Below, one piece after another: positions 1-19,288 of a stretch of DNA of 64,000 nucleotides. The stretch is taken from positions 96,001-160,000 of the IMG/VR virus record IMGVR_UViG_3300010429_000387; one strand, 5' to 3'. How positions within the stretch are numbered: the first letter of the stretch is position 1; each line of letters starts with the position of its first letter. Position numbers and translations under genes: made by a program. This stretch comes from a virus (Duplodnaviria > Caudoviricetes). The notes beneath the pieces are model-generated. The model was not told where the DNA came from. It ran no database searches and worked only from the letters and a program-made list of their open reading frames with translations.

Positions 1-2
1 GG

Positions 3-719: not shown

Positions 720-896
720 CCTTGACCACGGTATTCCACTGGTGTAGGGGACTAAGCGGTACACTACCTGACCTGACCCGGCCGTAGTGCCAATGTCCTG
801 TCATAGTGGTGTACCGCATTCCAACGCACCGACCAGGCTTCCCAGCCCTACCTTCCACGTATCTGGGGACCACGTCACTTGCACGGAGAAAAAACC

Positions 897-1775: not shown

Positions 1776-1786
1776 TTCGTAGTACC

Positions 1787-1827
1787 AAGACGGGAGGCAT
1801 CCGGTAACGGGTGTCCTCCCGTTTCTT
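1787..1827 (+). terminator. Probable intrinsic terminator
   Basis: ACGGGAGGCATCCG-GTAA-CGGGTGTCCTCCCGT stem followed by TTCTT, just after the stop codon. Confidence 0.6.
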
Positions 1828-1845
1828 GCGAAATGGGAGCAGTGT

Positions 1846-2493
1846 ATGCTGTCCTTGGGGCTAGATCCGTCCATGTCCGGCTTTGGCTGGTGCGTCCACG
1901 ATCCGTGGGCGACGGGCAAGGCTCGTGTTGTGGATAAGGGGAGATTTGCGAGTCCATCCAGCGAGGTCTTCATCGCTCGGTACCTTGGACTCAGGGCGTG
2001 TGTCCTTGATCTTCTCGATGATTACCCCGAGGTCAAGATAGTGGGGGTTGAGTCACCCCCATTCGGTGAGGCGTGGTCAGAGGGTCTCTACGGCCTATTT
2101 CTCTACGTGAATGAGGCTATCTACCTCCGACGTAGGGACGTGGTGTACTTCGATCCCTCGACAGTCAAGGCTCTCACGAAAGAGGACCCCGAGGTCCGTA
2201 AGGGCAAGATGTTCAAGGCCGATATGGTGGCAATGGCCCAAGCCGATACCGGGGTATTCCGGTGGAATGGGGACGAAGCTGATGCCTACCACATCGCCAG
2301 GTTTGCCGCCCGCTTCTGGTTGCTAATCGAAGGAGAGATCACAGAGGACGTGCTTCTCCCCTCGGAGAAGCACACTTTCCTCAGGTCCCACACCTTCACT
2401 AGGGGCAAGCACGCTGGGGAGACCCAGAAACTCGGTACCCTGTTCCGTGAGGACGAGAGGTTCTTCAGGTTCTCAAGATTGGAGTCAACATGA
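1846..2493 (+). CDS. ruvC: RuvC-like Holliday junction resolvase
   Basis: LGLDPSMSGFGW, VGVESP and DEADAYHIA match the RuvC acidic motifs. Confidence 0.8.
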   Translation: MLSLGLDPSMSGFGWCVHDPWATGKARVVDKGRFASPSSEVFIARYLGLRACVLDLLDDYPEVKIVGVESPPFGEAWSEGLYGLFLYVNEAIYLRRRDVVYFDPSTVKALTKEDPEVRKGKMFKADMVAMAQADTGVFRWNGDEADAYHIARFAARFWLLIEGEITEDVLLPSEKHTFLRSHTFTRGKHAGETQKLGTLFREDERFFRFSRLEST

Positions 2494-3740: not shown

Positions 3741-3744
3741 AGTC

Positions 3745-4977
3745 ATGATCCAAATCGAGGTTACAGGCTTTCAGTCTATCGAACAGACTCAGGTCTGCAT
3801 CGATGGGTTCACTGCTCTTGTGGGTCGGTCCAACATTGGCAAGTCCGCCGTGGTCCGGGCTCTCAAGTGTGCCCTGACCAACAGCCTCGGAACCTCCTTC
3901 GTTCGCCATGGGGAGTTCTGTGCCCGAACTCTCCGTGGTGCGAAGACCTGCAAGTGCTTCTCCTCAGTCCACATCCAGATGGATGGGTTCGATCTTCTGT
4001 GGGAGAAAGGGGACTCGGTCAACCGATACCTCTTCAACGGCAAGGAGTATGACAAGCCGGGACAGGGGATCCCGGACTTCCTGGTGGATAGCGGGTTCAG
4101 TCCAGTGAAGGTGGGTGACGATTCTGGCTGCATTCAAGTGGCCGACCAGTTCTTTCCGATCTTCTTGTTGAACCAGTCTGGACCAGCTATCGCTGAGGCT
4201 ATCTCCGACGTGGCCCGGCTGGACCGGATCAATAAGGCCGCCAAGATGGTCGAGAAGGACCGTCGGGAGGCCATGTCCACCAAGAAGGTTCGGGAGAAGG
4301 ACGCTGTGGAGCTGAGGGCCAAGCTCCAGGGCTACGACGGGCTCGACAGGGCGATAGAGCAGACCTCCTCAGTGGAGGACCAGCTTGCCGTGGTCGAGGC
4401 GGCAGAGGGCAAGGTAGACCTGCTGACGGGGTACCAGGAGTCGGTACAGACCTTGACCGAACGGATCCGAGGGCTTGTCTCTGTCGGGTCGGTGGTGGTC
4501 CCCGACCTGGCCCCCCTGGTGGCAGCCGACTCCAAGGCCACCAAGCTCACCAAGTTCTCGGTGGAGCTTGATGAGCGAGTTGAGAACTACAAGGCGGTTG
4601 CCTGGGTTGAGAACTTCCTGAGCAAGGTACCTGAGATCGAGCCTGTGCAGGAGGCCCAAGTGAAGATCAAGAAGCTCGATGGGTGGATCGGGAAGCTCCG
4701 CTCCTTCAAGGAGCGATTCGCCTTCCTGGACCGGGCAGAGAAGACCCAGGTCCCAGCCCTCACCGACGCTCCAGAGGCCCAGAAACGTCTTCAGACGATG
4801 GACCAGTACATCTCCAAGGTCCGAGCCCTTGAGACCGCCATCACCTCTCTGGAGGGCAAGCTCAAGGTTGCGACAGATGAGGAGGGGCAGGTGGTCTCCG
4901 AAGCTGAGGCGCTTGGTGTCTGCCCTACTTGCACCCAACCGTTTCAGGTTGGACAGTCGGAGCACGCCCATGCCTAG
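3745..4977 (+). CDS. Rad50/SbcC-like ATPase, N-terminal half ending in a zinc hook
   Basis: IEVTGFQS, Walker A GRSNIGKS, Q-loop-like IQVADQ, helical repeats and terminal CPTC. No signature motif or Walker B. Confidence 0.85.
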   Translation: MIQIEVTGFQSIEQTQVCIDGFTALVGRSNIGKSAVVRALKCALTNSLGTSFVRHGEFCARTLRGAKTCKCFSSVHIQMDGFDLLWEKGDSVNRYLFNGKEYDKPGQGIPDFLVDSGFSPVKVGDDSGCIQVADQFFPIFLLNQSGPAIAEAISDVARLDRINKAAKMVEKDRREAMSTKKVREKDAVELRAKLQGYDGLDRAIEQTSSVEDQLAVVEAAEGKVDLLTGYQESVQTLTERIRGLVSVGSVVVPDLAPLVAADSKATKLTKFSVELDERVENYKAVAWVENFLSKVPEIEPVQEAQVKIKKLDGWIGKLRSFKERFAFLDRAEKTQVPALTDAPEAQKRLQTMDQYISKVRALETAITSLEGKLKVATDEEGQVVSEAEALGVCPTCTQPFQVGQSEHAHA

Positions 4978-7066
4978 GATCTCCTTCCTGTTTCGGACAG
5001 ACGTTCACCTCTCAGACCGGTCCCCTATGTCTTGGAAGGGGGACTACTCGGCTGAGATTTTCTCCAACCTAGAGCAGATTGGAGAGCTTGCCAAGGTGCA
5101 TCAGGTCAATGCGGTCTTGGATGGAGGTGACTACTTCCACATCAAGGCCCCAACCCGGAACCCTCACCACCTCAACGAGAGGTCGGCCAGAATCCACCGG
5201 GCGTACCCCTGCCCCACGTATTGCATCGAGGGCAACCACGACCTGGCCTACAACAACCTGGAGAGCTTGTCGAAGCAGCCCCTAGGGGTCCTTTACGCCA
5301 GCGGGATCTTCCAGCATCTTCGTGAACAGGTCTTCGAGGATGGTGACCTTCGTGTTCGGGTTGTCGGGGTCCCGTATAGCCCCAACCGGTCCCTGAGCGA
5401 TATGCTCAACATCCAGAAGAAGAAGGGTGACACCCACCTCATTGCGATTGTTCACTCCCTTGCAGCCAAGAACCCTCCAACTTCGGTTGAAGACTTCTGG
5501 AACGAACCTGTTTTCCCCTATGAGTCTCTGGTCAGCCGGAACGGTCCCGATGTGTGGTGTTTCCCACCTGGAACACCTGTTCTGGATTGGCTTTATCGTC
5601 CGGTACCCATTGAGAAGGCGGGTAACAGCTTAGCTATCGCAGGCAGAGCAGGACCAACCACCATAGAAGTGGTCCACCCAGTCCGTCAAGTCAACGAGGA
5701 CCTGATTCACCTTGACATTGAGGGGGTCCCTCCCCTGGTTCAAGGTGTGACCTCCGAACACCCTTACTGGGTTTCTCAGGGACTTAGGTGTAAGCACCCC
5801 TCTAGGTCTTCCCGTAGGTGCCACCCTGACAAAGGGAGAGGTTCAATCCCATGTGCTATTTGTGAAAACCCTGCTGAGGTGAGTCCCACCTGGGTTAGGG
5901 CTGGAGATATACGTCCAGGTGACTTTGTCGCAATCCCTGTCCCTAGAATCCCTGTTGCAGCCCCATCGAACCCTGGGCTATCTCGCCTTTTGGGGTACTA
6001 CTCTGCTGAGGGTCACATAATCAAGAATGGGAAGGGGAAGCCCGTTTCTGGTGTAGGTTGGTCTTTCCACTCGGATGAGCTGACCTTGCACAAGGATGTC
6101 TGTGACCTTGTGAAGGAGAACTTCGGGCTGGACACCCATTTCCACTGGAACCTAGAGGAGCACACAGTTCAAATCTGTGCCTATGGTAAGAAGATTGCCA
6201 ACTTCTTCTCCAAACACGGGGGGTGCATGGCTGAGCATAAGGAACTATCCTCCTGGATCTGGGGGAGATCCCCAGTGGACCGCCTTGAGTTCATTAGGGG
6301 CTGGCTCCTTGGTGACGGCCATGCAAGGGCAGAAAAGACAGATGTTGGTGGGGCCACTGTGTCCCAAACGCTGGCTTTCCAGGTGTTTTTTCTCGCCCTT
6401 TCGGTGGGTTTACACCCGTGCTTCACCGTAAGACCCCCAAAGAAAGGGCGTCTCCAAGCCAACATCATCTCGTTCTATGGGGGTGACGGTGCGGCACTCT
6501 CACGAAGTATTGGAGTCAACCCACCAGACAGAGTCAAGACAAGAGTTTCTGGCTTTTTCTCTGGTGGATTGTACTATACCAGGGTCCGCAAGGTTACTCG
6601 TGTGTCCTACCAAGGGCCTGTTCACAACTTCCGGACAGCTTGTGGTGAGTACCTCGCGGGTGGGGTTCTGGTACACAACTGCTTCGGTCACTGGCACAAG
6701 GACCAGGGCATCGAGGTGGTGGGTGGGAAGCAGTTCGTCAACCAGGGGTCAGTGTCTCGGGGGTCCTTGGTGCGTGAAAACTTGGAGCGTACCCCCAGGA
6801 TATCACTCGTTGAGTTTGACGGGTCGGACCTACGGGTCACCCCTATTGGCTTGTCGGTGGCCCCCGCCTCTGAAGTGTTCGACTTGGAGAAGAAGGCACT
6901 TCAAGAGAGGGAGCGGCATGACATCGACCAGTTCATCATGCGACTCATCTCCGACGGTGCAGTTGACCCGGATGCAACCATCGAGGAAAACGTGAGGGGC
7001 CTCGACTTTGCGGATGACGTTCGTAGTGAGGCCCTACGTTACCTTGAGCTTGCGGAGGTCGGATGA
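4970..7066 (+). CDS. Mre11/SbcD-like metallophosphoesterase nuclease containing an intein
   Basis: Motifs TDVH, GGDYFH, EGNHD, IVH and GHWH. Start placed at ATG 4970, overlapping the upstream stop. Confidence 0.88.
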   Translation: MPRISFLFRTDVHLSDRSPMSWKGDYSAEIFSNLEQIGELAKVHQVNAVLDGGDYFHIKAPTRNPHHLNERSARIHRAYPCPTYCIEGNHDLAYNNLESLSKQPLGVLYASGIFQHLREQVFEDGDLRVRVVGVPYSPNRSLSDMLNIQKKKGDTHLIAIVHSLAAKNPPTSVEDFWNEPVFPYESLVSRNGPDVWCFPPGTPVLDWLYRPVPIEKAGNSLAIAGRAGPTTIEVVHPVRQVNEDLIHLDIEGVPPLVQGVTSEHPYWVSQGLRCKHPSRSSRRCHPDKGRGSIPCAICENPAEVSPTWVRAGDIRPGDFVAIPVPRIPVAAPSNPGLSRLLGYYSAEGHIIKNGKGKPVSGVGWSFHSDELTLHKDVCDLVKENFGLDTHFHWNLEEHTVQICAYGKKIANFFSKHGGCMAEHKELSSWIWGRSPVDRLEFIRGWLLGDGHARAEKTDVGGATVSQTLAFQVFFLALSVGLHPCFTVRPPKKGRLQANIISFYGGDGAALSRSIGVNPPDRVKTRVSGFFSGGLYYTRVRKVTRVSYQGPVHNFRTACGEYLAGGVLVHNCFGHWHKDQGIEVVGGKQFVNQGSVSRGSLVRENLERTPRISLVEFDGSDLRVTPIGLSVAPASEVFDLEKKALQERERHDIDQFIMRLISDGAVDPDATIEENVRGLDFADDVRSEALRYLELAEVG
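5558..6679 (+). mobile_element. Intein (374 aa) with LAGLIDADG homing endonuclease
   Basis: Starts CFPPGT, block B TSEHPYW, LAGLIDADG-like LLGYYSAEG and FIRGWLLGDG, block F GPVHNF, ends VLVHN followed by Cys(+1). Confidence 0.93.
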
Positions 7067-8037
7067 GCAACGGAGTCAACTACATATCCTACTCTGGGTA
7101 CAAGCTCTACATCCAGTGCCCCTTTGCGTACTGGAATAGGTACGTCAACAAGACTACCCTTGCAGATGCGGAGAACGGGCTTGGGACCCTCTACGGGTCA
7201 ACCGTTGGCCTCGTGTTCGAGGCGTTCTATCGGGATCGGATCTGGAAACGAGAGGATTACCTTGAGGCCCTTCAGGGCTTGGTTGAACCCTACCTGAAGA
7301 AAGCGATCAAGGACCAAGAGAGGCAGGGTCGAATCATCGACTGGTCTGATGAGGAGGCCACCAAGACCTATAAGAACCAGGGAGAGCTGGTAGCCGACAT
7401 CCGGGATTCAATCCCAAGGGGTGTTCAAACCATTCGGCAGAACAAGCTGATGGGGCCTTTCATGGAGGCCGAGATGAAGCTGGATTGCCGCTTCGGTGGG
7501 TACACCATTGGAGGGCGTGCCGACTTCGTGGTTCAGCGGACTCAACCTCATGGTGACCTGGTCATCCTTGATGGGAAGGGATCCAAGCATCGGGCCAAGT
7601 ACGTTGACGGCCATGCGTTGAAAGAGGGGGCCGCTATCGAGGGCGTTCAGCTCAAGTGGTACGCCTTCCTGTACCGTGAGCGCAAGAAGCGGACCCCGGA
7701 TGCCCTTGGGTACATCTTCTGGAAGTTCGGGGGCGAGCAGGCCATGGAGTGGGTCCCCTTCAAGGCCAAGGACCTCGATGACCTGAAGGATGAGGTACTG
7801 GCAACCCTGACTAGGATCGATACTTCGGTGTCAAGGCTCTATAGCCTATCGGGTAAGCCGCAAGCCTGTGCGGACTTGCGTGAGGAGCTGTTCCCTGCTC
7901 AACCGGGGGACGGATGCCGTCTGTGTTCCTACGTGTCTGTTTGCGAGGATGGTCAGAAGAAGACCAAATCGTTCAAGAGGGCTCGCCTGGAACTCCCCGA
8001 AGGTGTAAATGAGCTGACACTCGGCCTGGACGATTGA
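7063..8037 (+). CDS. PD-(D/E)XK nuclease (RecB/AddB/Cas4-like) with a four-Cys cluster
   Basis: SYS..YIQCP, GRADFV, ILDGKG, QLKWYA, CRLCSYVSVC. Confidence 0.85.
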   Translation: MSNGVNYISYSGYKLYIQCPFAYWNRYVNKTTLADAENGLGTLYGSTVGLVFEAFYRDRIWKREDYLEALQGLVEPYLKKAIKDQERQGRIIDWSDEEATKTYKNQGELVADIRDSIPRGVQTIRQNKLMGPFMEAEMKLDCRFGGYTIGGRADFVVQRTQPHGDLVILDGKGSKHRAKYVDGHALKEGAAIEGVQLKWYAFLYRERKKRTPDALGYIFWKFGGEQAMEWVPFKAKDLDDLKDEVLATLTRIDTSVSRLYSLSGKPQACADLREELFPAQPGDGCRLCSYVSVCEDGQKKTKSFKRARLELPEGVNELTLGLDD

Positions 8038-8048
8038 GGTAGACCTAC

Positions 8049-8330
8049 ATGACCCTGATGACCCCTGACAAACTTCATGAGAGAATGCAGAACCTTTCAA
8101 CTCGCCATGCGAAAGTCCTTCGCAGAAAGGCGGAGTTGGGTGGTGAGCTGAAGTCTAAGAAGGAAGAGCTGGCCTCTTTGGTCAAGGAGATCCAGGCGGC
8201 AGGGTACAACCCCAAGACCCTCGTTGAGGACCGGAACAAGGCCCAAGAGGAGTTGGAGACGCTTCTCGACACGTTCGAGACCAACCTGGTCGAAGCGGAG
8301 ACGATCCTCTCCGAGTTCGATAAAAAGTGA
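8049..8330 (+). CDS. Small coiled-coil protein
   Basis: 93 aa with heptad pattern; GAGG RBS. Confidence 0.75.
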   Translation: MTLMTPDKLHERMQNLSTRHAKVLRRKAELGGELKSKKEELASLVKEIQAAGYNPKTLVEDRNKAQEELETLLDTFETNLVEAETILSEFDKK

Positions 8331-8342
8331 GAGGAAACAGAG

Positions 8343-9602
8343 ATGAAGATTGAATTTAGCCTTCCGGACCTCTTGAAGGCGCTTGAGGTCGTTTCCATCG
8401 TCACCCCTCGTCCGGTGACGGCCAGTGGAGCAGCAGGGTACCTGTTCGTTGTCCGGGGTCAGGAGTGCTTCCTGTACTCCCGTGATGAACTCTGTGTCGC
8501 CCGAGCCAGCTTCCCTCTGTCCGAGTCGTCTGAGGATGGGCAGTTCGTCTACCCGGCTGAGTCCATCGACGCTCTCAAGTACCTGGATGACGACTCGTGT
8601 ACCATCGAGGCATCCAGCGTAGACGAGCGATTCACTGTTCGATACCAGACCGCTTCTGGGGTTGAGGCAGAGCGAAGCTCTTTCGACCCTCAACTCCTTT
8701 CGACCTTCGATGAGGACCTGGAGGCAGCAGCAGCCTCGTCCGTCGAGTTCCGTTCCGGAGTGCTTCGAGAGGCTATCAACCTTGCCAAGCCCTTCATCGG
8801 GAAGGTCGGGGACTCCAAGGTCGGGGAGCACTTCAAGGGGCTCCAGATCATGGATGCCACCAGGGTGGATAAGGACAAGGGTATCGACTACTCCAAGGGT
8901 GATGGGTACCTATTCGTCTCGGATGGGACCCGCACCTTCTTCTTCCAGTGCGATGACTTCAAGGGAAAGAGCCTGGAGATACACGCTCAGTTCCTTGGTC
9001 TATTCGTGAGCTTCCTCAGCAAGTGCAAGGAGAAGGTGGTCATCCGCAAGGGCTCTCACCTCATCTTTGCCATGAGCGAGTCGGGTCAGGTTCTTGGGTG
9101 GCCCCTCCACACAAAGCTCCACGACAAGTTCGTCTACTACACTCTCAAGACGGACAACAAGCACGTCTTCCAGGTGAACCGGGCTCGCTTCGTCAACTCT
9201 CTTCAGCACGCTAGGATGGAGCTGCCCGCCAAGCAGAACAAGGTCAAGCTCAACTTCAGTCAAGAACGTAAGAGTATCTGGATCGGGATCGCAGAGGGTT
9301 CCTCCAAGGCCAAGGGCATCCCAGTTGAGGTTAAGGTCATCTCGGATGCTGACCCATCGGAAGTCACAGACTTCTCGCTTGGGATCAACCTCGACTTCTT
9401 GATCGAGCTGGTAAACTCAGTGAAGGGGCATACCGTGGAGTTCCGATGCGGTATCTTCCCAGCGAGTGAGACCCGTAAGCGTGACATGGGCCTCTTCCGG
9501 ACGATTGACGACTTCCGTCTCGACCCGTCAGGCAAGGTAACTCCGGAATCAGAGGGGTCTTTCCAATGCAAGGTGACTCGATTCATGCCCTCAAAGGACT
9601 GA
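8343..9602 (+). CDS. Putative sliding clamp (DNA polymerase III beta/DnaN-like)
   Basis: N-terminus MKIEFSLPDLLKALEVV, FVSDGTR and GINLDFLIELV resemble DnaN. A DnaX-like loader is encoded nearby. Confidence 0.65.
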   Translation: MKIEFSLPDLLKALEVVSIVTPRPVTASGAAGYLFVVRGQECFLYSRDELCVARASFPLSESSEDGQFVYPAESIDALKYLDDDSCTIEASSVDERFTVRYQTASGVEAERSSFDPQLLSTFDEDLEAAAASSVEFRSGVLREAINLAKPFIGKVGDSKVGEHFKGLQIMDATRVDKDKGIDYSKGDGYLFVSDGTRTFFFQCDDFKGKSLEIHAQFLGLFVSFLSKCKEKVVIRKGSHLIFAMSESGQVLGWPLHTKLHDKFVYYTLKTDNKHVFQVNRARFVNSLQHARMELPAKQNKVKLNFSQERKSIWIGIAEGSSKAKGIPVEVKVISDADPSEVTDFSLGINLDFLIELVNSVKGHTVEFRCGIFPASETRKRDMGLFRTIDDFRLDPSGKVTPESEGSFQCKVTRFMPSKD

Positions 9603-10261
9603 CCCGACGCCAGCGAGTCCGGAACCTTCAGGACCAGGTGACGACGGTCAAGGCTATCCGGGACCAGCTAGCTGAGGACCTGGCGGGTAAGGAGAGGGAG
9701 ATTGAGGCCCTTGCCGCCCGCCAGGAGGTCCTTTCCAAGGTTTCAGAGCTGTACCGTGTGCTCATGGACCGGATGGTCATGGGGCAGGTCAAGGTCATCG
9801 AACGGGTGGTGACCGAGGGTCTCAGGACGATCTTCTTCGACCAGGACCTCAGCTTCAAAGCGGAGCTGTCCTCGAAGTACAACCGGGTGTCTGCTGACTT
9901 CTTCATCTGCCAAGGGGACCCGGAGAACGGTGGCATCAAGGGGTCCCCCCTCGACTCGTTCGGGGGTGGCCCATCGAGCATCACCAGCCTGATTCTTCGG
10001 ATCCTCACCCTCCTTCGGCTCAAGCGTCGGAAGTTGCTGCTTCTCGATGAGACCTTGGCAGCGGTGTCAGATGACTACATCGAGACCACCGGTCAGTTCC
10101 TCAAGAAGCTGTCTGAAACGACCGACCTACCGATTCTCATGGTGACGCACAAGCCAGCTTTCCTTGACCACTCGGCTACTGCCTACCAGGGGGACTCCAG
10201 GGTCTCTGCCACCACTGGGAAGAGCCACTTCATGGTCAAGAAGCTACGAGGTGCCGTATGA
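9566..10261 (+). CDS. Rad50/SbcC-like ATPase, C-terminal half
   Basis: Short coil, signature-like DSFGGG, Walker B LLLLDE and H-switch MVTH. No Walker A. Confidence 0.82.
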   Translation: MQGDSIHALKGLTRRQRVRNLQDQVTTVKAIRDQLAEDLAGKEREIEALAARQEVLSKVSELYRVLMDRMVMGQVKVIERVVTEGLRTIFFDQDLSFKAELSSKYNRVSADFFICQGDPENGGIKGSPLDSFGGGPSSITSLILRILTLLRLKRRKLLLLDETLAAVSDDYIETTGQFLKKLSETTDLPILMVTHKPAFLDHSATAYQGDSRVSATTGKSHFMVKKLRGAV

Positions 10262-10785
10262 GGACGGGAGCAGAGATCAGGTCACGGGTTCGGGAGTTGG
10301 TCTCCCAAGAACTTGACCGAAGAATCCAGGAAGCCTCCGAGCGCCTTCCCCACCGATGTACCCACAACTACAAGCATCCCCTCGACACTCGAAAGCATGT
10401 GGAGGGGGAACGGAACGAAGGGTACAACCGAATCACCCTGGAGGATGGGAGCCCAGTTCCTCAACGTATTGGGCTTTGCCTCCTTGGGTCTGAGAATCCA
10501 GAGGAGTGGGGCGGGACCATTTGTGATGAGCCCATCGACGCCAAGAAGTGCCCCTACTTCACCCCGGCCAAGAGCAAAGAAGACCTGATCCCTGAGCTGG
10601 AGGAGAACCTTCGGGATGCCTCCTGGGTTGAGGAGCATCTACCAGAGGTCCACGCTCTTATCTGGGTGCTCGGGGAGGTCACGCTTCGGGTCCCCTGGTG
10701 GAGAAAGCTCCTCTTCCGGTTCAAGCTCATTCGTACTGAGCCGGTTCTCCCCCCTATCGACCCATCTAAGCTGCTGGCCCCATGA
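10258..10785 (+). CDS. Hypothetical four-Cys protein
   Basis: Coupled to both neighbours by ATGA overlaps; four Cys; PWWRKLLF near the C-terminus. Confidence 0.7.
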   Translation: MRTGAEIRSRVRELVSQELDRRIQEASERLPHRCTHNYKHPLDTRKHVEGERNEGYNRITLEDGSPVPQRIGLCLLGSENPEEWGGTICDEPIDAKKCPYFTPAKSKEDLIPELEENLRDASWVEEHLPEVHALIWVLGEVTLRVPWWRKLLFRFKLIRTEPVLPPIDPSKLLAP

Positions 10786-11366
10786 ACTTCTCGATCCTCT
10801 CCTACTTGCTCACCACTGAGCGCTACCGCCAGAGAGCTGCTAGTGGGGGAGGCTTCTCGGTTCCTGTTATGTCGGAGCGAGAGGTACCACCCACTGCGCA
10901 ACCTCTGTTGGTGACCAACGCCAGGGGAGGGTTCTCCCCTACAGTGCGGAACAGCGAGGGTTACGCTAGGTTTGGATTTTCCCCTGTCCCACTTGGGGAC
11001 GAGCCAAGGTTGTTCCTAGCTCTTCTTGATGCTCTCTGGGATCTCTCAGTAGCTTCCAACTGGGAAAACCGGTTCAACACGGTATCGGATGCCTTGTCTC
11101 ACATGCGGGCCTCTTCGTTTCAACCGAAGAGCTTGGTAATCTCAGAAGACCTTGTTGCCTCCTTCTCCAAGGACCTGGGTGGTGTAAGCGTAGGTGAGTT
11201 GGAGGGGGTTCGGGTTCTCTCAGCGAAGCTGCCACTTGGGTCTGCACTTCTTGTCACTGACCCTGCCTCGTTCGGTGTCTACACAAGAGTGGGGGACCAT
11301 CTTGGTCTTCAGCTCTTCAACGTGCGCCAAACAGCATCGGTGATAAGAACGGATGGCCTGGCTTGA
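10782..11366 (+). CDS. Hypothetical protein resembling the C-terminal part of the major capsid protein
   Basis: Aligns by eye to 37118..37990 (see findings). Confidence 0.55.
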   Translation: MNFSILSYLLTTERYRQRAASGGGFSVPVMSEREVPPTAQPLLVTNARGGFSPTVRNSEGYARFGFSPVPLGDEPRLFLALLDALWDLSVASNWENRFNTVSDALSHMRASSFQPKSLVISEDLVASFSKDLGGVSVGELEGVRVLSAKLPLGSALLVTDPASFGVYTRVGDHLGLQLFNVRQTASVIRTDGLA

Positions 11367-12057
11367 TGATTTCACCTTCTACTCGCATGATAACCTGGAT
11401 GAACGGGTCCGGGAGTCTTTGTGGGGTCGTGGTGTCTCAGAGGAGCAGATAGATGCTTTCCGGCTGGGTTACGTTGACGGAGTGCTCCCCTCACAGATCG
11501 AGTTCCCAGACGAGTTCCGGGAGTGGTCCCATCGGGGCCAGAAGCTAGCCGACTCCTACGTCCTCCCGCTCACCAATCCCCTGGGCGAGATTCTGGGGGT
11601 CCAGTTTCGGTCTGTGGAACGAGGTAACCGAGGGTACCTCGACTTCTTCTTGACCAGGTCGGAGCCCGTGCTCCTAGGTCTGGCTCAGGCCATGCCCTAC
11701 ATCTGGGATACCGGAACCATCTGCATCGTTGAGGGTGGTTTCGACTTGTTCCCCGTACAGCGGGTGTTCCCCTTCACAGTACCTACACTCACCTCCAAGG
11801 TGAACGAGGTTCTACTGCGTTGGCTACATCGACTTGTTCAGCGGGTGGTTCTGTTCTACGATGCCGACTCTGCTGGTAGAAGTGCTAGCTTCGACTTCAT
11901 CAAGGAGCACGGTTCCGGGTTCGATGTTCGGCCGTTGGAGTACCCTAGAGGTGTAAGACTACCGAACGGAAAGCCAGTGAAGGACCCGGCTGACCTTTGG
12001 GAAGCCTGGGGGGACGACAAGCTCGCTGAATACCTCAAGGCCCAGATTTCGGAGTGA
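11353..12057 (+). CDS. DnaG-like primase catalytic (TOPRIM) domain
   Basis: FRLGY, LPLTNPLGEILGVQFR, IVEGGFD, LFYDADSAG, KDPAD. No N-terminal zinc-binding domain. Confidence 0.85.
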   Translation: MAWLDDFTFYSHDNLDERVRESLWGRGVSEEQIDAFRLGYVDGVLPSQIEFPDEFREWSHRGQKLADSYVLPLTNPLGEILGVQFRSVERGNRGYLDFFLTRSEPVLLGLAQAMPYIWDTGTICIVEGGFDLFPVQRVFPFTVPTLTSKVNEVLLRWLHRLVQRVVLFYDADSAGRSASFDFIKEHGSGFDVRPLEYPRGVRLPNGKPVKDPADLWEAWGDDKLAEYLKAQISE

Positions 12058-12059
12058 CC

Positions 12060-12551
12060 ATGCCGCAAACCTACGAGAACGCTGAAGCAGTCGAGACCAT
12101 CGCCAACCAGCTCATCGGTACCTATCACCCTGAGTTGGCTACCGCCAAGTTCCGCTACCTTTTCAAGGAGAAGGCTGGGAAGAAGGGCGGGAAAGCTGTC
12201 CTGGGTACCGTCAAGAAGATGAGTGATCTCATGGTCTTCCTCATCGACGCCCAGTTCTTGATGGAGATCCCTCTCGATGTCTGGAACGAGATGGATGCCC
12301 AGAAGCGAACGGCCCTGGTGGACCACCTCCTGGAGCGCTGCACCGGGGAAGAGGATGAGCAGACGGCCGAGATGAAGTGGAGCACTCGGGAGCCAGACGT
12401 TCACGAGTTCAGCTCAATCCTTCGTCGTCACGGGGCCTGGACAGAGGACCTCTCCGGGTTCGTCTCCGTGGCTCAGACGGTTGACTTGAGCTTCATGACG
12501 GCTGCTGAGGGTGAGGAGGATTCCGAAGTCCAGACAGCGGTCAATGCCTAA
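12060..12551 (+). CDS. Putative phage metallopeptidase-like protein with degenerate HExxH
   Basis: W..MD..KRTALVDHLLERC and PDVHEFSSILRRHGAW fit the phage metallopeptidase pattern. Confidence 0.6.
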   Translation: MPQTYENAEAVETIANQLIGTYHPELATAKFRYLFKEKAGKKGGKAVLGTVKKMSDLMVFLIDAQFLMEIPLDVWNEMDAQKRTALVDHLLERCTGEEDEQTAEMKWSTREPDVHEFSSILRRHGAWTEDLSGFVSVAQTVDLSFMTAAEGEEDSEVQTAVNA

Positions 12552-12563
12552 GGGGGTTCTGCT

Positions 12564-14120
12564 GTGTGGGATACCAAACATCGACCCCTGACTTTTGCCG
12601 ATGTTTTGGGTCAGAGCGGAACCGTTCAAGTCCTGAAAGCTAGGCTCAAGAACGGTACCGCCCTCGACACCAACTACATCTTCAGTGGAGGTTCGGGCCA
12701 AGGCAAGACAACCCTGGCCCGGATCTTTGCTCGGGCACTGCTTTGTCAACAGCTTGACAAGAACAACCCGGAACCGTGCAACAAGTGCGACAACTGCACC
12801 TCGATCCTCAACGACAGCTCAAGGGCCTTCGTTGAGCAGGATGCCGCCAGTCAGGGGAACATCGAGCAGGTTCGCAAGATCGTAGAGGACCTCCCATTCG
12901 CTGTGTTCGGGGCCTCCAAGCGCATTTACCTGTTCGATGAGTGCCACCGGATGAGCAAGGACGCCCAAGATGTCCTCCTCAAGCCGTTGGAGGAGCGGAA
13001 GCTCCTTGGGATGTTCTGCACAACGGAGCCAGAGAAGGTTCGGGGTGCCATCCGGTCCAGGTGCGAGGAGTATCATATCCGGAAGGTCACACGGGATGAT
13101 GTTCTTGCCCGGATGAAGATGATCCTTGCGGCTGAGGGAGTCGAGCATGATGATGAGGCGGTCCTGATCGTCATCGACTTCTGTGGGGGTCATGTTCGAG
13201 ACGTTGTGAACCGTCTGGAGATGATCTCCCAGATGGGGGCGATCACGGTTGAGAGTGTCCGGGAATACCTGAACCTCTCAGTTGTTTCCACCTACTACGA
13301 AGTTCTTCTTCGGATCCCAGGTGACACCAAGGGCGCCCTAGCCCTAATCGACAAGGCTTGCGAGAGGGTAACCCCGGAGGAGATCGCTTCCGGCCTAGCT
13401 GAATCAGCTATGAACTCCTTTCGCCTAGCCAACGGGATGAATGCGGACTTCACCTTCGCTGACAAGGCCCTGAGTCAGCAGGTGAGTAACCTGTATGGCC
13501 CCCAACTCATCAGGGTTGCTGAGTATTTCCTCAGGTCAAGGTATGTGACCCAGGTTGGTCTCATCTGTGACCTGGTGTCCCTGGCTCAGCAGTTGGGCTC
13601 TGGTCAGCCTATTGCGGCCCCCAGGGCGGCCCCCAGGGCGTCTTTCCAACCGCTACCGACCCAACCCCCGACTCAGGTGGCTCAAGCTCCTGTGGTGGTC
13701 TATGCCTCTTCTGAGCCCCTAGTCCAACCTGAGCCTGTGGTTGAGTCACCGGTCCAACCTGTGGTTGATCCACCAGCCCACTCCTTGGGGGTAACCCCAG
13801 CTCAGGCTGAAACGGTAGCAGACCCACCACCCTCGCCCTCAGCGGCTTCAACCCCCCCTGTCCTTCCCCTTGAGAGTGTCAAGTTGGATGAGTCCGGGCT
13901 TCGTTCGGATGGGGTTGGGAATCTTGGATCATCTGATAAGCGGGCTCAAACTGAGCTAGATGTCCATGTAGTTCCATTGGAACTACCAGGGTCCCAGAAG
14001 AAGTCGGTAGAGATCAACTTCAACAATCGCTCAAAGGACGGTCGAGACATTCTCCCACCATCTGTGTGGCGCCGAGAGTTCCAAGAGCTTCTGAGAAGAG
14101 GAGCCTCCGGTGCCAACTGA
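12564..14120 (+). CDS. dnaX: Clamp loader, DNA polymerase III gamma/tau-like
   Basis: KHRPLTFADVLGQ, GGSGQGKTT, C...PCNKCDNC zinc module, LFDECH, IRSRC; Pro-rich tail. Confidence 0.9.
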   Translation: MWDTKHRPLTFADVLGQSGTVQVLKARLKNGTALDTNYIFSGGSGQGKTTLARIFARALLCQQLDKNNPEPCNKCDNCTSILNDSSRAFVEQDAASQGNIEQVRKIVEDLPFAVFGASKRIYLFDECHRMSKDAQDVLLKPLEERKLLGMFCTTEPEKVRGAIRSRCEEYHIRKVTRDDVLARMKMILAAEGVEHDDEAVLIVIDFCGGHVRDVVNRLEMISQMGAITVESVREYLNLSVVSTYYEVLLRIPGDTKGALALIDKACERVTPEEIASGLAESAMNSFRLANGMNADFTFADKALSQQVSNLYGPQLIRVAEYFLRSRYVTQVGLICDLVSLAQQLGSGQPIAAPRAAPRASFQPLPTQPPTQVAQAPVVVYASSEPLVQPEPVVESPVQPVVDPPAHSLGVTPAQAETVADPPPSPSAASTPPVLPLESVKLDESGLRSDGVGNLGSSDKRAQTELDVHVVPLELPGSQKKSVEINFNNRSKDGRDILPPSVWRREFQELLRRGASGAN

Positions 14121-15975
14121 GTGGGTCGTACTAGAGCTAACATCTCAAGGGGAGGATGAAGATCCTGAAGTCCTGAAGAAAGCCTTTGCTCGTATCGTCA
14201 AAGGAGGGGACGTTTTCATCCCCGCTTCAATCTCGATTGTAGGGGACTCCAGGGTAGTACACAAGCTGATTGACAACTACGTCTTCGTGAAGCGTACTTT
14301 CCCGGACTCCTTCTTCTTGAAATTGGAGGGGTCCAAGTACGTTGCGTGCGTTCTGACTGTAGCTCACAGCTCTAGTGGGACCCGTAAGATAGCCTGTGTA
14401 TCTGAGTCAGACATCGAGAAGATGCGTCGCCAGATCCAGGTCGAGACTGAGCAGGGTATCGAGGTTGGTGACGAGGTAGAGGTCATGAGCGGCCCCTACA
14501 AGGGGATCACAGGTAAGGTCATTGAGGAGATCCCTGAGAACGATAGCGTTCAAGTTTACATCAGTCTCCGCTCAAAGCAGGCCCTAGTCACACTACCTCG
14601 TAGCTTCATGAGGTTTGTGGCGAAAGACAAGGGTGACCAACCTTCATTCTCCCCGTTCCTCAACAAGATCACAAGGATTCGGGAGTGGGTCACACGGGTT
14701 CGTCCGTTCTTCCTTTGGTCCCCGAGTCCGATTCGGCTGGTGCAGTCGAAGTATACAGGGGTGCTTCAACTGGAAGAGTGGATGCACAGAGGGAACTCTT
14801 TGGTCAAGCTGTTGGTTGACCCCCCAGCACCAACATCCTTGGTGGGGGTTGGTGGTGTGTCAATCGCAGATAGATTTGAGCATACCCAGAGGATGAGCCG
14901 CTTCATAGAGCGTGCTCCGGCCTTGTTCCACCTCTCACGGATGCCCGTCCATGACATCACACCCCTGGAGTCGAAGTACATCGAGGTCCAGTGGTTTCAG
15001 GACGTTCTACACAGGACTGCCGCTCTTCAGGAGTCGATTGAAGGGATCGAAAGGTCCATCCCAGATTGGAAGCCCCCGATGGTTCAGAACCTCATCTTCG
15101 ACGGTCACAACCTGGCGTACAGGGTTGTGAATGCTCTCCGAGCAATCCCAAACCAACTTACGGACAAGGACGGGAACCCAACCTCCTTGATCTTTGGCTT
15201 CCTGAAGAGCCTGGCTTCGTTCAAGAAGCGTTTTGACAGAGCTAACATCTATGTTGTCTGGGACGGCTCAAAACAACGCAGGGCCTCTCTGTTCCCAGAG
15301 TACAAGGCACAACGCCCTGAATCTGGGAACGGTGGTGAGGTCAGTGACCAGATGTCCAAGCTCCGGAAGCTACTCCCGCTGTTGGGCGTTACCCAGGCGT
15401 ACAACCCGGATGAAGAGACAGATGACCTTATTGCTTGCTTGGTCAAGGGTCGCCTCAAGGGACAGCACAACGTCATTGTTTCCACTGACCGGGACTTCCT
15501 ACAGTTGGTGACATACACCGACCTATTGTTGGTTCCGAAGGTGGGCTCAAGGCAGGAAATCCTTTACGACCCTGACCGAGTTGTGGAAGAGTACGGGGTC
15601 GCCCCAAGCAAGATGGTCCACCTCCGAGCACTTGTAGGAGACACATCGGACAACTTCCCTGGGGTTCCTAGGGTACCAAGAAAGGTTCTAGCAGCCTTGT
15701 TGAACACGCATGGATCTCTCACGGGGCTATTTGCCTCTAGTCTGGCTGGTATCACCTCAGCACAGTACGAGAAGATTCGTGCGTTCGAGCAACAGGCACG
15801 TCTGAACTTCCAGTTAATGACACTCCGAGACGACGTTGAGTGTCCCATCACGGAGGCAGCTCCAGATCAGGAGGCGGCCTCTTCGGCTATGTTGGCTTCG
15901 GAGATCCAACCAGAGTCCATCGTAGGGGTTTTCTTTGCGAACAGCCCCAGTCAGGGTTTCGCTAAGTCAAATTGA
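14110..15975 (+). CDS. Fusion of a NusG-like (NGN+KOW) domain and a 5'-3' exonuclease/flap endonuclease
   Basis: N-part: WVVLEL..., VFIP, NYVFV, GDEVEVMSGPYKGITGKV (KOW). C-part: FDGHNLAYR, VVWDG, PEYKAQR, ETDDLIA, STDRDFLQL, GDTSDNFPGV. Confidence 0.85.
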   Translation: MPTEWVVLELTSQGEDEDPEVLKKAFARIVKGGDVFIPASISIVGDSRVVHKLIDNYVFVKRTFPDSFFLKLEGSKYVACVLTVAHSSSGTRKIACVSESDIEKMRRQIQVETEQGIEVGDEVEVMSGPYKGITGKVIEEIPENDSVQVYISLRSKQALVTLPRSFMRFVAKDKGDQPSFSPFLNKITRIREWVTRVRPFFLWSPSPIRLVQSKYTGVLQLEEWMHRGNSLVKLLVDPPAPTSLVGVGGVSIADRFEHTQRMSRFIERAPALFHLSRMPVHDITPLESKYIEVQWFQDVLHRTAALQESIEGIERSIPDWKPPMVQNLIFDGHNLAYRVVNALRAIPNQLTDKDGNPTSLIFGFLKSLASFKKRFDRANIYVVWDGSKQRRASLFPEYKAQRPESGNGGEVSDQMSKLRKLLPLLGVTQAYNPDEETDDLIACLVKGRLKGQHNVIVSTDRDFLQLVTYTDLLLVPKVGSRQEILYDPDRVVEEYGVAPSKMVHLRALVGDTSDNFPGVPRVPRKVLAALLNTHGSLTGLFASSLAGITSAQYEKIRAFEQQARLNFQLMTLRDDVECPITEAAPDQEAASSAMLASEIQPESIVGVFFANSPSQGFAKSN

Positions 15976-15988
15976 GGGAGGAGTCGTT

Positions 15989-16621
15989 ATGAGCGGAGGC
16001 TATGTCATTTCGGTTGACCCAGCAGAGCTGGCAACCAGGTTTGCTACACAGGAACCGCTCTTCGATGAGATTGACGAGGATCCTGAGGGTCCCAATGTCG
16101 AGCCTCTTCTATCCACCCTCAACTTCGAGAACCAGATCAAGCCACTCCTCGACCGTATCCCCGAGAGAGAGGCTGACCTGATTCAGCTCTACTACATCCA
16201 GAAAAAGCGCCAGGCCGACATTGCCGAGATTTTCGGTGTGACCCAGGCAGCCATAAGCTACCGTCTGGACCGTGGCCTTCAACGCATCCGCTTCTTGCTT
16301 TCCATCCCCCAGGTGACCGAGGAGGACATGCGCCGGGACCTGCCAGGTGTACCCTTCAAGGTGATCGACGTGGATATCCTGGTAGGTATGTGGCAAACGA
16401 CCTGCCAGAGTGAGGTGGCCTCTCGGCTGGGCCTCACCCAAGGTCGGGTCCGTCACCGCTTCTTTGGGGCTGTCAAGCAGCTCGAAAGGAAGGCCAAGGA
16501 GGATGAGCGGTTCGACCCATATCATCGGGTCTTCTCTGCTATCGCCAGCAAGCGGTTCAACATTCTCCGAGAGGTCAAGCTCCCCCAGTGGAGCAACCGT
16601 GGTGGGGATGGGTGCTTCTGA
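15989..16621 (+). CDS. Protein with two tandem sigma70 region-4-like HTH domains
   Basis: IPEREADLIQLYY..KRQADIAEIFGVTQAAISYRL and QSEVASRLGLTQGRVRHRF. GGAGG RBS before ATG 15989. Confidence 0.75.
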   Translation: MSGGYVISVDPAELATRFATQEPLFDEIDEDPEGPNVEPLLSTLNFENQIKPLLDRIPEREADLIQLYYIQKKRQADIAEIFGVTQAAISYRLDRGLQRIRFLLSIPQVTEEDMRRDLPGVPFKVIDVDILVGMWQTTCQSEVASRLGLTQGRVRHRFFGAVKQLERKAKEDERFDPYHRVFSAIASKRFNILREVKLPQWSNRGGDGCF

Positions 16622-16688
16622 GGGGTCTGTCCGCACCTCCTGAGTAGTGCGAGCATTTACTTGTATGCCCGGTGGTTAGAGGACCACC

Positions 16689-17594
16689 GTGCCGCTCGTA
16701 CAGAACCTCAAATACCACGACTACCAGTTCGAGTACGCTGTCCCAGCGGGGAAGTGGCGTTGGACTACTCGTCTCGACGTGTCTCAGTCGAGCCCAACCT
16801 ACTCGGTGCGGGATATCGTCTCACCCTACGGACTGCTTCGGGACTCGATTCCTATCCCTGGGGTAGTGATCCAGGCGATGGGGGAGAGCATCGTGGAGTT
16901 GCGATCCAACTTCACCCCAAGCATTCTTGTTGGGCCTCCGACTCAACTCGTTTTCGATGTGGACGAGGGGCGTGGCTATTCAGTCCCCCAGACCGTCCTT
17001 GTCACGAACGATGGGGTCTATGGGTCCATTCTCGGGGCTAGCCTGACCACTTCGGCACCCTTCGTTCGGGTAACCCCCACGACGGTATCGAACCTTGCCA
17101 TCAATGAGAGTGGCGAGTTCACCGTGGAGGTCAACTCGAAGGACCTTCTCGCTGTTGATGGCCCCTACCATGAGACCATCGTCATCCAAGACCCGGCCTC
17201 GGCCAACAGCCCACAGTCGGTGCCAGTTCTGATCAATGTTCGTCCCAAGGCGAGCATTGCCTCGGTGCCTACCGTGTTGGTTTTCAGTGTAGTTCGCCCC
17301 ATTGATGGGGCGTTCTCAACTGTACCTCCCCAGAGCTTCACGATCCAGAACCTTGGTTCCGCTGGATCGGTTCTGGAGTACGATATCCGGGCTCTGACTG
17401 GGCTTTGCTCGAACTGGCTTCGTAGCTGGCTCCCAGCTTCAGGGGTCCTGACCTCAGGGCAGTCTCAAGCCATTCAAGTCACAGTCCAACCCCCGGACAA
17501 CATGCTCCAGGGGTCCTACTCAGAAAAGCTCCGTGTATCCGGGTTCAGCTCGAACGGGTACCTGGACGTTGAAATTCGTCTTGTTATTTCGTGA
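16689..17594 (+). CDS. Putative virion protein with two Ig-like (BACON-like) domains
   Basis: Two beta-rich repeats (PTQLVF..QTVLVTNDG; PTVLVF..QSFTIQNLG..WL..P.SG.L..G.SQ.I.V.V). Confidence 0.55.
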   Translation: MPLVQNLKYHDYQFEYAVPAGKWRWTTRLDVSQSSPTYSVRDIVSPYGLLRDSIPIPGVVIQAMGESIVELRSNFTPSILVGPPTQLVFDVDEGRGYSVPQTVLVTNDGVYGSILGASLTTSAPFVRVTPTTVSNLAINESGEFTVEVNSKDLLAVDGPYHETIVIQDPASANSPQSVPVLINVRPKASIASVPTVLVFSVVRPIDGAFSTVPPQSFTIQNLGSAGSVLEYDIRALTGLCSNWLRSWLPASGVLTSGQSQAIQVTVQPPDNMLQGSYSEKLRVSGFSSNGYLDVEIRLVIS

Positions 17595-17601
17595 GGGCAG
17601 A

Positions 17602-17874
17602 ATGTCAGACCGCAACTTCGATCTGGGTGGTTTTGAGGTCCAGGGGTCCGCTGGGCTGGATGCCTTCTTTGCGAGGGAGCCTGCCATAGTGACCCCCTCC
17701 AAGGGGATGCGTAGAGTGGCATCCCTTCAGGACCTCAACGGATTCGTCCGTCTCTCCAACGACACCCTCATCCACAAGGCCGACAGGGACCTTTGGGCTA
17801 TCCGTCGCCAGGGTGATGGCTCGATGTTCGTTGAACGTATGTTCGATGACAGCGGATCACCCCTCAAGGTTTGA
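17602..17874 (+). CDS. Hypothetical protein
   Basis: GAGG RBS; 90 aa; contains RRVAS. Confidence 0.7.
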   Translation: MSDRNFDLGGFEVQGSAGLDAFFAREPAIVTPSKGMRRVASLQDLNGFVRLSNDTLIHKADRDLWAIRRQGDGSMFVERMFDDSGSPLKV

Positions 17875-17884
17875 AGGAGGCCCC

Positions 17885-19288
17885 GTGAAAGCGAGCCAAA
17901 AGGTCCGAACGGTCATTGCCAGAGAGGAAGGGCTGCCCCTACCGCCCCCACCTCCTGGGTCCGGTGAGGGTGGGTCCCTCAAGCGAGAGATCCCTAAGGG
18001 TCATGAGTTTGACCCCAAGGCGCTCAAGCCTCTTGCTCGGGCTCTGTTCTCTTCATCGGTTGCCCTTGGTCACGCCGTTACGGCCTACAAGGAGTTCGCT
18101 CGAATCAAGTCCAGTTCCATCTCTCCGGATGGGATGCTTGGGGGGAAGGGTTACGTCCTGAAGGTCAAGGATGTTCGGGCCAAGCTCCAGCAGGCATGTG
18201 AGCTTCTCTCGGCCCTCACTGACACTCTTCATGATGAGCTACACGGACCTCACTGGAACGCCAAGCTCTCTGATGTTGGGCAGAATGATGCTGAGGACAT
18301 CACTGAGCTTCTTGATGAGTCCGATGAGGTCCTTGAGGACCCTGAGCGCTTTGGTGACAAAGAGGTCCAGGACATCGAGAAGAAAAACGACGGGAAGGGT
18401 GGGACCCCCAACACCAAGAAGACCGAGGACCAGATCAAGGAGTCCGAGGCCCGTCAGAATGAGACCGAAGCCTCCCGGCTCCCCGATGCTGGTGGGAAAG
18501 AGACCATGGAGGCTGCTCCGGCTGGGAGTCGTGAGCGGTCCAAGCAAGCATCCGACTGGAAGGCCCCTTCTGGGTGGGGTCGCTTCGCCAACTCTTCCGT
18601 CCCAGTGGATACTCTCCCTGGACCTCGTGTGAACCACCTTGAGCGTGGGGAGCAGACCGGCCCAGGGGGCTCCTACAACCGGGATGAGCCTCGGGTCGAG
18701 GATGAGTGGGGCATGGCCGAAGGGGCTCCTCCGAAGACCCTCAACAAGGTCTGGGGAAGCATCGAGGAGTGGGGTGCCTCTGGGCTCCCTGCTGATACCG
18801 AGACCCGTACTGAAGCCAAGGACTTCGGGGTTGGCTATGGAGCCAAGGGTGAGGGAACCGAGGGCTACGGGACCAAGAACCCTGATGGGCGAGGGGTCTG
18901 GGGTCCACAGAGTGACCTTCCCAACGACCCCCAGACTACCACCAAGGACCCAGGGGGCATCCCCTTTGGCGGGGGACCTCAACGGGACTTCTGGGGTGCG
19001 GTAGCTGAGTCGGAACTTCCCTTCGACGGCCCTGACCCTGTTGCACGGTCGGACTACTACGAGGGTGACAAGGGGAACCTCGTCAATGTGAACCCACATG
19101 GCAATCGCCCTGTGGCCCAGTCAGAGATGCCTGGGAATGATGGCGTCAACTACAACTTCGACCGGGACCTTCCCAACACTGGTCAAGTCTACGAACAGCA
19201 GGCAGTTCCCTACGTGAAGCGTGATTGGACAACGCACAACGACCGGAACGACATGCAAGACCTCTACAGGATGGACAAAAATGGCTGA
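17885..19288 (+). CDS. Hypothetical head-region protein with a low-complexity repeated C-half
   Basis: AAGGAGG RBS before GTG 17885; repeated A-x-S-x-[LMV]-P-x-D units. Confidence 0.75.
   Translation: MKASQKVRTVIAREEGLPLPPPPPGSGEGGSLKREIPKGHEFDPKALKPLARALFSSSVALGHAVTAYKEFARIKSSSISPDGMLGGKGYVLKVKDVRAKLQQACELLSALTDTLHDELHGPHWNAKLSDVGQNDAEDITELLDESDEVLEDPERFGDKEVQDIEKKNDGKGGTPNTKKTEDQIKESEARQNETEASRLPDAGGKETMEAAPAGSRERSKQASDWKAPSGWGRFANSSVPVDTLPGPRVNHLERGEQTGPGGSYNRDEPRVEDEWGMAEGAPPKTLNKVWGSIEEWGASGLPADTETRTEAKDFGVGYGAKGEGTEGYGTKNPDGRGVWGPQSDLPNDPQTTTKDPGGIPFGGGPQRDFWGAVAESELPFDGPDPVARSDYYEGDKGNLVNVNPHGNRPVAQSEMPGNDGVNYNFDRDLPNTGQVYEQQAVPYVKRDWTTHNDRNDMQDLYRMDKNG

Follow-up and report, generated by a model that had tools for sequence, protein, structure and literature searches.

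A predicted compact HK97-fold protein encoded within the primase gene cassette of megaphages

What is a relative of the capsid protein doing among the replication genes of a megaphage? The question is raised by ORF194, an open reading frame (ORF) in the 64,000-nucleotide (nt) stretch of DNA analysed here (the window), which covers bases 96001–160000 of IMG/VR record IMGVR_UViG_3300010429_000387, a virus genome of 407,078 bp that is complete and carries direct terminal repeats. ORF194 runs on the + strand from the ATG at 10782 to the TGA at 11366 and encodes 194 amino acids (aa). A first-pass annotation, made from the sequence alone, had described it as a truncated paralogue of the major capsid protein (MCP) that lies inside the replication operon and overlaps both neighbours. 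The overlaps are as described: the start codon shares 4 nt (ATGA) with the stop of an upstream 175-aa ORF and the final 14 nt overlap the start of a Toprim gene at 11353. Our analysis points to a compact HK97-fold protein that belongs to a widespread family, is under purifying selection and stays beside the primase gene, and we consider an adaptor or platform role in the primase module to be its best explanation.

The fold is the firmest part of the answer. The AlphaFold2 model of ORF194, built on 36 homologous sequences, has a predicted local distance difference test score (pLDDT) of 89.9 and a predicted template modelling score (pTM) of 0.86. In Foldseek searches against PDB and BFVD the top 50 matches are exclusively HK97-fold MCPs or encapsulins, and the best BFVD match is gp27 of phage G (E 1.7e-7, template modelling score (TM) 0.64). 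With VIA-align the best match is HK97 gp5 (Z 11.4, root-mean-square deviation 3.4 Å, 145 of 194 residues aligned, model residues 1–192 against gp5 residues 129–383); Myxococcus xanthus EncA reaches Z 11.3, and 180 chains have Z ≥ 8. A Foldseek-independent scan of 48,161 PDB representative chains has only capsids and encapsulins in its top 50 (best Z 10.1), and T4 gp24 (1yue, Z 7.9) and SaPIbov5 Ccm (7rwz, Z 7.7) are among its matches. Every named cluster found by a shape search of the ESM Atlas is capsid-related (TM by query 0.58–0.68), and the low-confidence ESM Atlas model of the ORF194 protein also finds mainly capsid clusters. As a negative control, the model of the neighbouring 175-aa protein gave no match above Z 5.6. 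Judged by the overall topology of the model, ORF194 has the HK97 fold, in agreement with the capsid relation proposed from the sequence.

According to DSSP, the model begins with a short helix and a strand (residues 1–29) and continues with a strand (30–34), a short hairpin at the place of the E-loop (42–54, with strands 42–45 and 51–54), another strand (61–65) and a spine helix of 21 residues (71–91). Two helices (101–109 and 122–128) and a sheet (117–158) make up the A-domain, and a P-domain hairpin (165–178) and a C-terminal strand (185–189) complete the chain. Where an extended E-loop and an N-arm would be expected, the model has only the short hairpin and the 29-residue N-terminal segment. 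In the model the protein appears to be a complete but loop-shortened, 'mini' version of the HK97 topology, about two-thirds of the usual length, in which the shortening is internal and both termini are apparently present. The words 'truncated' and 'fragment' therefore do not suit this protein, since all HK97 elements seem to be retained and, as described below, the length is stable within the family.

From which HK97 proteins could such a protein come? The MCP gene of the same phage (37118–37990, + strand) is genuine, with matches to PF05065 (E 1e-7) and phrog_2522 (E 2e-52). Its product is 37.8% identical to phage G gp27, 47.6% to the MCP of Acidobacteria phage Tunturi_5, about 29% to the MCPs of Bxz1-like mycobacteriophages and 84% to that of LR745208.1, an uncultured 485-kb genome. 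An alignment of this lineage (A6), with the window MCP in the first row together with Tunturi_5, phage G, Bxz1-, Myrna-, E3- and Skog-type MCPs, matches PDB 6wkk, which is phage G gp27, at E 4e-114. Judged by its MCP sequence, the phage has Bacillus phage G and Tunturi_5 as relatives, and the Bxz1-like mycobacteriophages are more distant.

Single-sequence and family searches gave nothing that ties ORF194 to this MCP. The best BLASTP block between the two has E 0.054 and is not significant, Pfam and PHROGs place ORF194 in no capsid or encapsulin family, and Pfam searches with 128 family members gave, even at E ≤ 10, no match to PF05065, PF25209, PF08967 or any other capsid or encapsulin family. 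Searches of PDB sequences with the family profile returned chance matches only. Pairwise alignment of hidden Markov models (HMMs) with hhalign, of the ORF194 family (A5, 128 sequences) against the phage's own MCP lineage (A6), gives P 2.7e-4 and a probability of 41.5% over 80 columns, and the main alignment pairs ORF194 residues 99–167 with MCP residues 163–245. Against HK97 gp5-type MCPs (A7) the same homologous region is found with P 0.041 over 79 columns. For comparison, two genuine MCP families, the own lineage and the gp5 type, align with P 7.1e-4 over 254 columns, and in the control alignments the ORF194 family gives P 0.12 over 15 columns with the Toprim protein and P 0.16 over 13 columns with the 175-aa neighbour. 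The signal depends on the diversity of the MCP alignment: against a near-identical one (number of effective sequences 1.4) the probability was 4.8% with alignment A1 and 22.5% with A5, and it rose after the MCP alignment had been diversified.

The first-pass annotation had matched ORF194 to the MCP by eye in four collinear blocks. Greedy hhalign recovers all four, paired in the same way, on one collinear path that joins ORF194 residues 2–188 with MCP residues 7–286. Blocks 2 and 3 fall in the main alignment, and block 1 (the spine helix) and block 4 (the C-terminal strands) lie outside the A-domain core, where the path is of low confidence. Gaps in the path suggest that ORF194 lacks about 40 MCP residues around the E-loop (84–125), some 20 of the P-domain and some 25 of the A-domain, these deletions being located from alignment gaps and not by superposition. 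Both checks that had been proposed for the capsid relation, profile alignment and a structure search, thus speak for it.

The relation between ORF194 and the MCP is, as far as sequence profiles can tell, weak in absolute terms, as strong here as that between true MCP families, and lineage-specific. We favour the phage's own, phage-G-type MCP lineage as the relative because P is 2.7e-4 there and 0.041 for the gp5 type, and because the best BFVD match of the model, phage G gp27, is among characterised proteins the one nearest to the MCP of the window. ORF194 probably arose by an old rather than a recent duplication within this lineage, which was followed by rapid divergence.

ORF194 is a real gene under purifying selection. 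It has 41 close homologues at 37–68% identity, and phmmer, run exhaustively on 1.84 billion representatives, found at least 174 family clusters at 50% identity; the best 150 of these 174 have lengths of 85–245 aa, none of them that of an MCP. No member is annotated in any source database beyond 'hypothetical protein' and there is no Pfam or PHROG family for them; tblastn of ORF194 against 50,697 phage records found no match in deposited phage genomes. The ratio of nonsynonymous to synonymous divergence (dN/dS) is 0.08–0.11 for ORF194, 0.10–0.11 for the primase and 0.05–0.09 for the 175-aa protein, values that are rough even though they come from the least saturated pairs (dS 1.0–1.8). A pseudogene or truncated remnant was considered and is ruled out by this selection and by the length of the family, which is stable at about 170–245 aa.

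The tempo of its evolution is that of replication proteins. ORF194 is 34–60% identical to the proteins of relatives, a little less than the two neighbouring proteins are. The MCP, compared in four of these genomes, is 94–98% identical (dS 0.9–1.2, dN/dS 0.03–0.05), so that the ORF194 protein evolves more than 10 times faster than the MCP. Conservation within the family is uneven: the N-arm motif L-L-x-x-E-R-x-R-x-R-A reaches 2.2 bits, residues 41–70 are also modestly higher, and the hairpin G-V-Y-T-R-V-G-D-x-L-G reaches 2.3–2.5 bits, as compared to 1.5–1.8 bits in the spine helix and the A-domain. The A-domain also carries a variable insertion, which in most members is about 11 residues longer than in the window protein.

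The MCP itself is conserved to an unusual degree. In three other megaphage genomes (L024, L026, L027) it is 94–98% identical in amino acids but 83–85% in nucleotides, and the replication proteins of the same genomes are 45–66% identical. It has more than 2,000 relatives, the best 120 of which are all at least 85% identical. This hyper-conservation is due to extreme purifying selection and not to recent transfer.

The position of ORF194 is as stable as its length. All genes around it lie on the + strand. On its 5' side are genes for RuvC-like and UvsX/RecA proteins, a split Rad50/SbcC, Mre11/SbcD, a PD-(D/E)XK exonuclease, a beta-clamp-like protein and the ATPase of the Rad50 C-terminal half. 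The 175-aa ORF, ORF194, the Toprim primase gene, a PF18894 gene and the genes for the clamp loader, a NusG-like/flap-nuclease fusion and a sigma-4 protein follow in this order. In 19 loci from IMG/VR, JGI and NCBI (the longest contig has 512 kb, and several are complete and have terminal repeats) the gene order is identical: Rad50N, Mre11, nuclease, a 93-aa protein, clamp, Rad50C, the 175-aa protein, mini-HK97, Toprim, PF18894, clamp loader, NusG/FEN and sigma-4. Three further loci, whose mini proteins are just 28–30% identical, have the same order, which brings the count to 22 of 22. The junctions are kept as well, with the 4-nt ATGA overlap upstream in most loci and an overlap of 14–17 nt with the primase gene, and the PF18894 gene directly follows the primase gene in all of them. 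Conservation and dN/dS, also proposed as checks, both came out in favour of the gene, and its place inside the replication operon, among replication and recombination genes, is confirmed.

Further downstream on the same strand are the genes for TerL (22366), the portal (27544), the head protease (33378) and the MCP (37118). The statement that ORF194 lies 26 kb from the head genes holds for the MCP, which is 25.7 kb away, but not for the terminase gene, which is just 11 kb downstream on the same strand and in the same continuous gene array. A promoter and terminator scan of window positions 1–18000 found no more sites than in shuffled sequence. ORF194 is not encoded in the head-morphogenesis module: it lies between the genes of the 175-aa protein and the primase in all 22 loci, with the genes for TerL, portal, protease and MCP 11–26 kb downstream.

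A genome in which the block has been rearranged tells more about which neighbours matter. In LR745208.1 the genes for Rad50, Mre11 and the clamp have other positions, and the cassette is separated from the clamp loader gene by additional genes. A weak homologue of the 175-aa protein (E 3.9e-4), a 180-aa ORF (L049:10141-10680, minus strand) and the Toprim gene are still adjacent, with overlapping ends, and the ORF that follows looks like the PF18894 gene, a likeness judged solely by inspection. The 180-aa ORF was found by its position; its match to the family profile is weak (P 3.4e-4), and a profile search of LR745208.1 with A1 gave no match. It appears that a four-gene cassette, consisting of the genes for the 175-aa protein, mini-HK97, Toprim primase and a metallopeptidase-like protein, has been kept there despite different flanks.

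The partners in this cassette are unusual proteins themselves. The 175-aa product of the upstream gene (10258–10785, + strand), which we call Cys4, has invariant cysteines C34, C74, C89 and C98 in a family of 76 homologues, and at its C-terminus a variable linker leads to a conserved D-x-x-K-L-L motif. Its AlphaFold2 model (pLDDT 84.9) matches no known fold (Foldseek best E 2.8, VIA-align best Z 5.6). The primase (234 aa, 11353–12057, + strand) matches PF13155 Toprim_2 (E 2.8e-5) and, at profile positions 140–329 only, the DNA primase family phrog_47 (E 4e-16). It is a DnaG-type protein reduced to the RNA-polymerase/Toprim core, without zinc-binding and helicase-binding domains. The same short primase is found in phage G (gp419, L045:4773-5480). 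Cys4 could be a metal-binding stand-in for the zinc finger that the primase is missing. ORF194 was also considered as a split zinc-binding domain of the primase, which is ruled out as conserved Cys and His residues are absent. The fourth gene (12054–12551, + strand) encodes a putative phage metallopeptidase-like protein (PF18894, E 3e-25). The complex of Cys4, Toprim protein and ORF194 was predicted in two runs, both with an interaction prediction score from aligned errors (ipSAE) of 0.00, which counts neither for nor against binding.

We favour the explanation that ORF194 is a non-shell adaptor or platform in the primase module, and we give it a probability of roughly 0.5. We infer a non-shell role from the HK97 fold, the purifying selection, the replication-protein tempo of evolution and the translational coupling to the primase and Cys4 genes, and the protein has most likely left the building of virion shells. 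Since its gene is second in a cassette with translational coupling, ORF194 would probably be made together with the replication proteins. It may serve the primase module as a protein-binding platform or an oligomeric adaptor in which the somewhat better-conserved parts, the N-arm and the P-domain, would hold a partner. Candidate partners are the conserved C-terminal peptide of Cys4 and the primase, which comes without its zinc-binding and helicase-binding domains. Among the three roles suggested in the first-pass annotation, a replication-associated scaffold fits best, as the cassette is present in all 22 loci, a modulator of capsid assembly is weakened and a defence decoy fits poorly.

Several points weigh against the adaptor or platform role. 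To our knowledge, the HK97-fold proteins of known function all build closed shells, either capsids or encapsulins. A non-shell role has no known precedent, the nearest case being the A-domain encapsulins, whose function is putative. Across the clade, gene order is fixed throughout the 16-kb block of replication and recombination genes, so that adjacency to the primase gene is specifically informative solely in the rearranged LR745208.1, and there the match of the 180-aa ORF to the family is a weak one made from sequence. Phage G has its short primase gene without the two upstream cassette genes; the primase therefore does not strictly need Cys4 and ORF194. Finally, dS is close to saturation in most pairs, which makes the dN/dS values rough.

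How does ORF194 compare to known systems? Phage G-, Tunturi_5- and Bxz1-type MCPs (PF05065) share the fold over ORF194 residues 1–192 and have collinear A-domain motifs. ORF194 differs from them in being about 100 residues shorter through internal deletions, in belonging to no Pfam or PHROG family and in its place in a primase cassette instead of a head module. The closest published analogy is provided by the Family 4 or 'A-domain' encapsulins (PF08967/DUF1884), reduced HK97 proteins of about 100 aa that consist of the A-domain only, are encoded downstream of metabolic enzymes in small two-gene operons, and are suspected of binding or stabilising the enzymes of their operons rather than forming classical shells (PMC8346489). 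They are found in thermophilic archaea and in a small number of Bacteroidetes. The likeness lies in a reduced HK97 protein kept in a conserved small operon with an enzyme. ORF194, at 194 aa, differs from Family 4 in that it has a predicted N-arm, spine helix and P-domain, is viral, stands beside a primase gene and has no match to PF08967. Searches of the literature for HK97-fold proteins other than capsid proteins, in jumbo phages or next to a primase, gave nothing relevant, and the phage G multi-omics paper mentions none. With ORF194 the HK97 fold is seen in a new, compact variant and in a genomic setting without precedent.

The alternative that survives best, although we consider it unlikely, is that ORF194 is a minor virion or head-assembly protein: a subunit of the vertex (penton) or of the portal-vertex capsomer, or a size or assembly modulator that co-assembles with the MCP. 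The HK97 fold itself and the closest sequence affinity, which is to the phage's own MCP lineage, are in line with this. So is the presence of T4 gp24 and SaPIbov5 Ccm among the structural matches, since they are likewise HK97-fold MCP paralogues other than the main shell protein. gp24 and Ccm are full-length proteins with clear sequence similarity to their own MCPs, are encoded in head modules and have accessory roles in assembly; ORF194 shares none of the first three features. Each very large capsid would need no more than a few dozen copies, which is consistent with a low-expression operon, and the gene lies upstream of the terminase gene in one array without detectable promoters or terminators. 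However, a protein of this kind would have to fit a near-invariant MCP lattice while evolving more than 10 times faster than it. The A-domain makes the contacts at the centre of the capsomer, and in ORF194 the A-domain is less conserved than the N-arm and the P-domain hairpin and varies in length. It is the same rate difference and the same variable A-domain that weaken the proposed assembly-modulator role. Moreover, the gene is tied to the Cys4 and primase genes and not to head genes at every locus, and no homologue was detected in phage G, a relative by its MCP, where none stands beside the primase gene.

A further possibility, which we regard as improbable, is a small encapsulin-like shell or capsomer-like ring that would dock or enclose Cys4 by its D-x-x-K-L-L peptide. 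Encapsulins score as high as capsids in the structural comparison, and the gene order invites the idea because the gene that overlaps ORF194 upstream encodes a protein with a short conserved motif at its end, as in a cargo-then-shell layout. In encapsulins the N-arm and the P-domain hairpin form the cargo-peptide site, and these are the somewhat better conserved parts of ORF194. Family 1 encapsulins (M. xanthus EncA, Thermotoga maritima) do load cargo that is encoded immediately upstream, and the cargo-then-shell operon is established for them (PMC8346489). In contrast to them, ORF194 has no sequence-family match (0 of 128 members match an encapsulin Pfam family), is about 70–90 residues shorter and is phage-encoded among replication genes, and its self-assembly is purely hypothetical. 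The C-terminal motif of Cys4 might just as well serve for clamp binding or for docking of another kind. A setting among replication genes is unfamiliar for encapsulins, and we know of no encapsulin in such a place.

Still less probable is a capsid mimic that is made early and soaks up or blinds host capsid sensors of the CapRel or Lit type of abortive infection. Such a decoy would explain the MCP fold and the probable MCP descent, its fast divergence would be like that of proteins in arms races, and the same genome has other proteins that carry MCP fragments. The divergence is of the wrong kind, however: the MCP is 94–98% identical where ORF194 is 34–60% identical, which means that the surface of the MCP is not tracked, and a dN/dS of about 0.1 is a sign of purifying and not of diversifying selection. 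In addition, the family-conserved motifs of the N-arm and the P-domain hairpin are outside the confidently aligned MCP columns, and the clade-wide fixed position in a core replication cassette is unlike that of accessory anti-defence genes.

It is very improbable that the protein is unrelated to capsids and owes its HK97 likeness to an error of structure prediction or to convergence on a similar alpha/beta arrangement. For this reading speak the capsid families missed by Pfam, PHROGs, PDB-sequence profile searches and BLASTP and the hhalign probability of just 41%. They have to be set against four independent structure searches with solely HK97-fold matches over almost the full length at Z 10–11, a low-confidence ESM Atlas model that also falls mostly on capsid clusters, a neighbour control that stays at or below Z 5.6 and an HMM–HMM signal that lies in the region expected from the structure and is as strong as the one between true MCP families.

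Two other observations were made in these genomes. The genome of the window contains two ORFs of about 260–290 aa on the minus strand (L030:1213-2088 and L031:1393-2169, about 339.8–343.3 kb of G000), in which pieces of the MCP are set in unrelated sequence. One of them has a 56%-identical copy of MCP residues 1–68, the other has MCP residues 243–284 followed by 83–116 in permuted order. Partial MCP matches of a like kind occur in the related genomes G001 and G002, and these proteins may be capsid-docking modules or mimics. The second observation concerns the clamp loader, which in one relative is a protein of 917 aa (L047:7029-9782) with an intein that carries a LAGLIDADG endonuclease, according to precomputed Pfam matches; the clamp loader gene of the window (12564–14120) has no intein.

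The results describe a stable, widespread family that keeps the predicted HK97 fold at two-thirds of its normal size, stays next to a primase gene and evolves at the tempo of replication proteins. They also indicate that annotation at the level of the fold adds much in megaphage genomes. If ORF194 were a vertex or assembly factor after all, it would be relevant to the question of how an almost invariant MCP gives rise to phage-G-type capsids with a very high triangulation number. More tentatively than the adaptor role itself, we propose that in a large clade of 300–600-kb megaphages the HK97 fold has been exapted as a non-shell subunit of the replisome that organises a reduced primase and Cys4. 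If this is true, ORF194 would be the first HK97-fold protein that works in DNA replication instead of enclosing something. A role in replication would be a new use for a very successful viral fold, and a case of a virus domesticating its own capsid gene.

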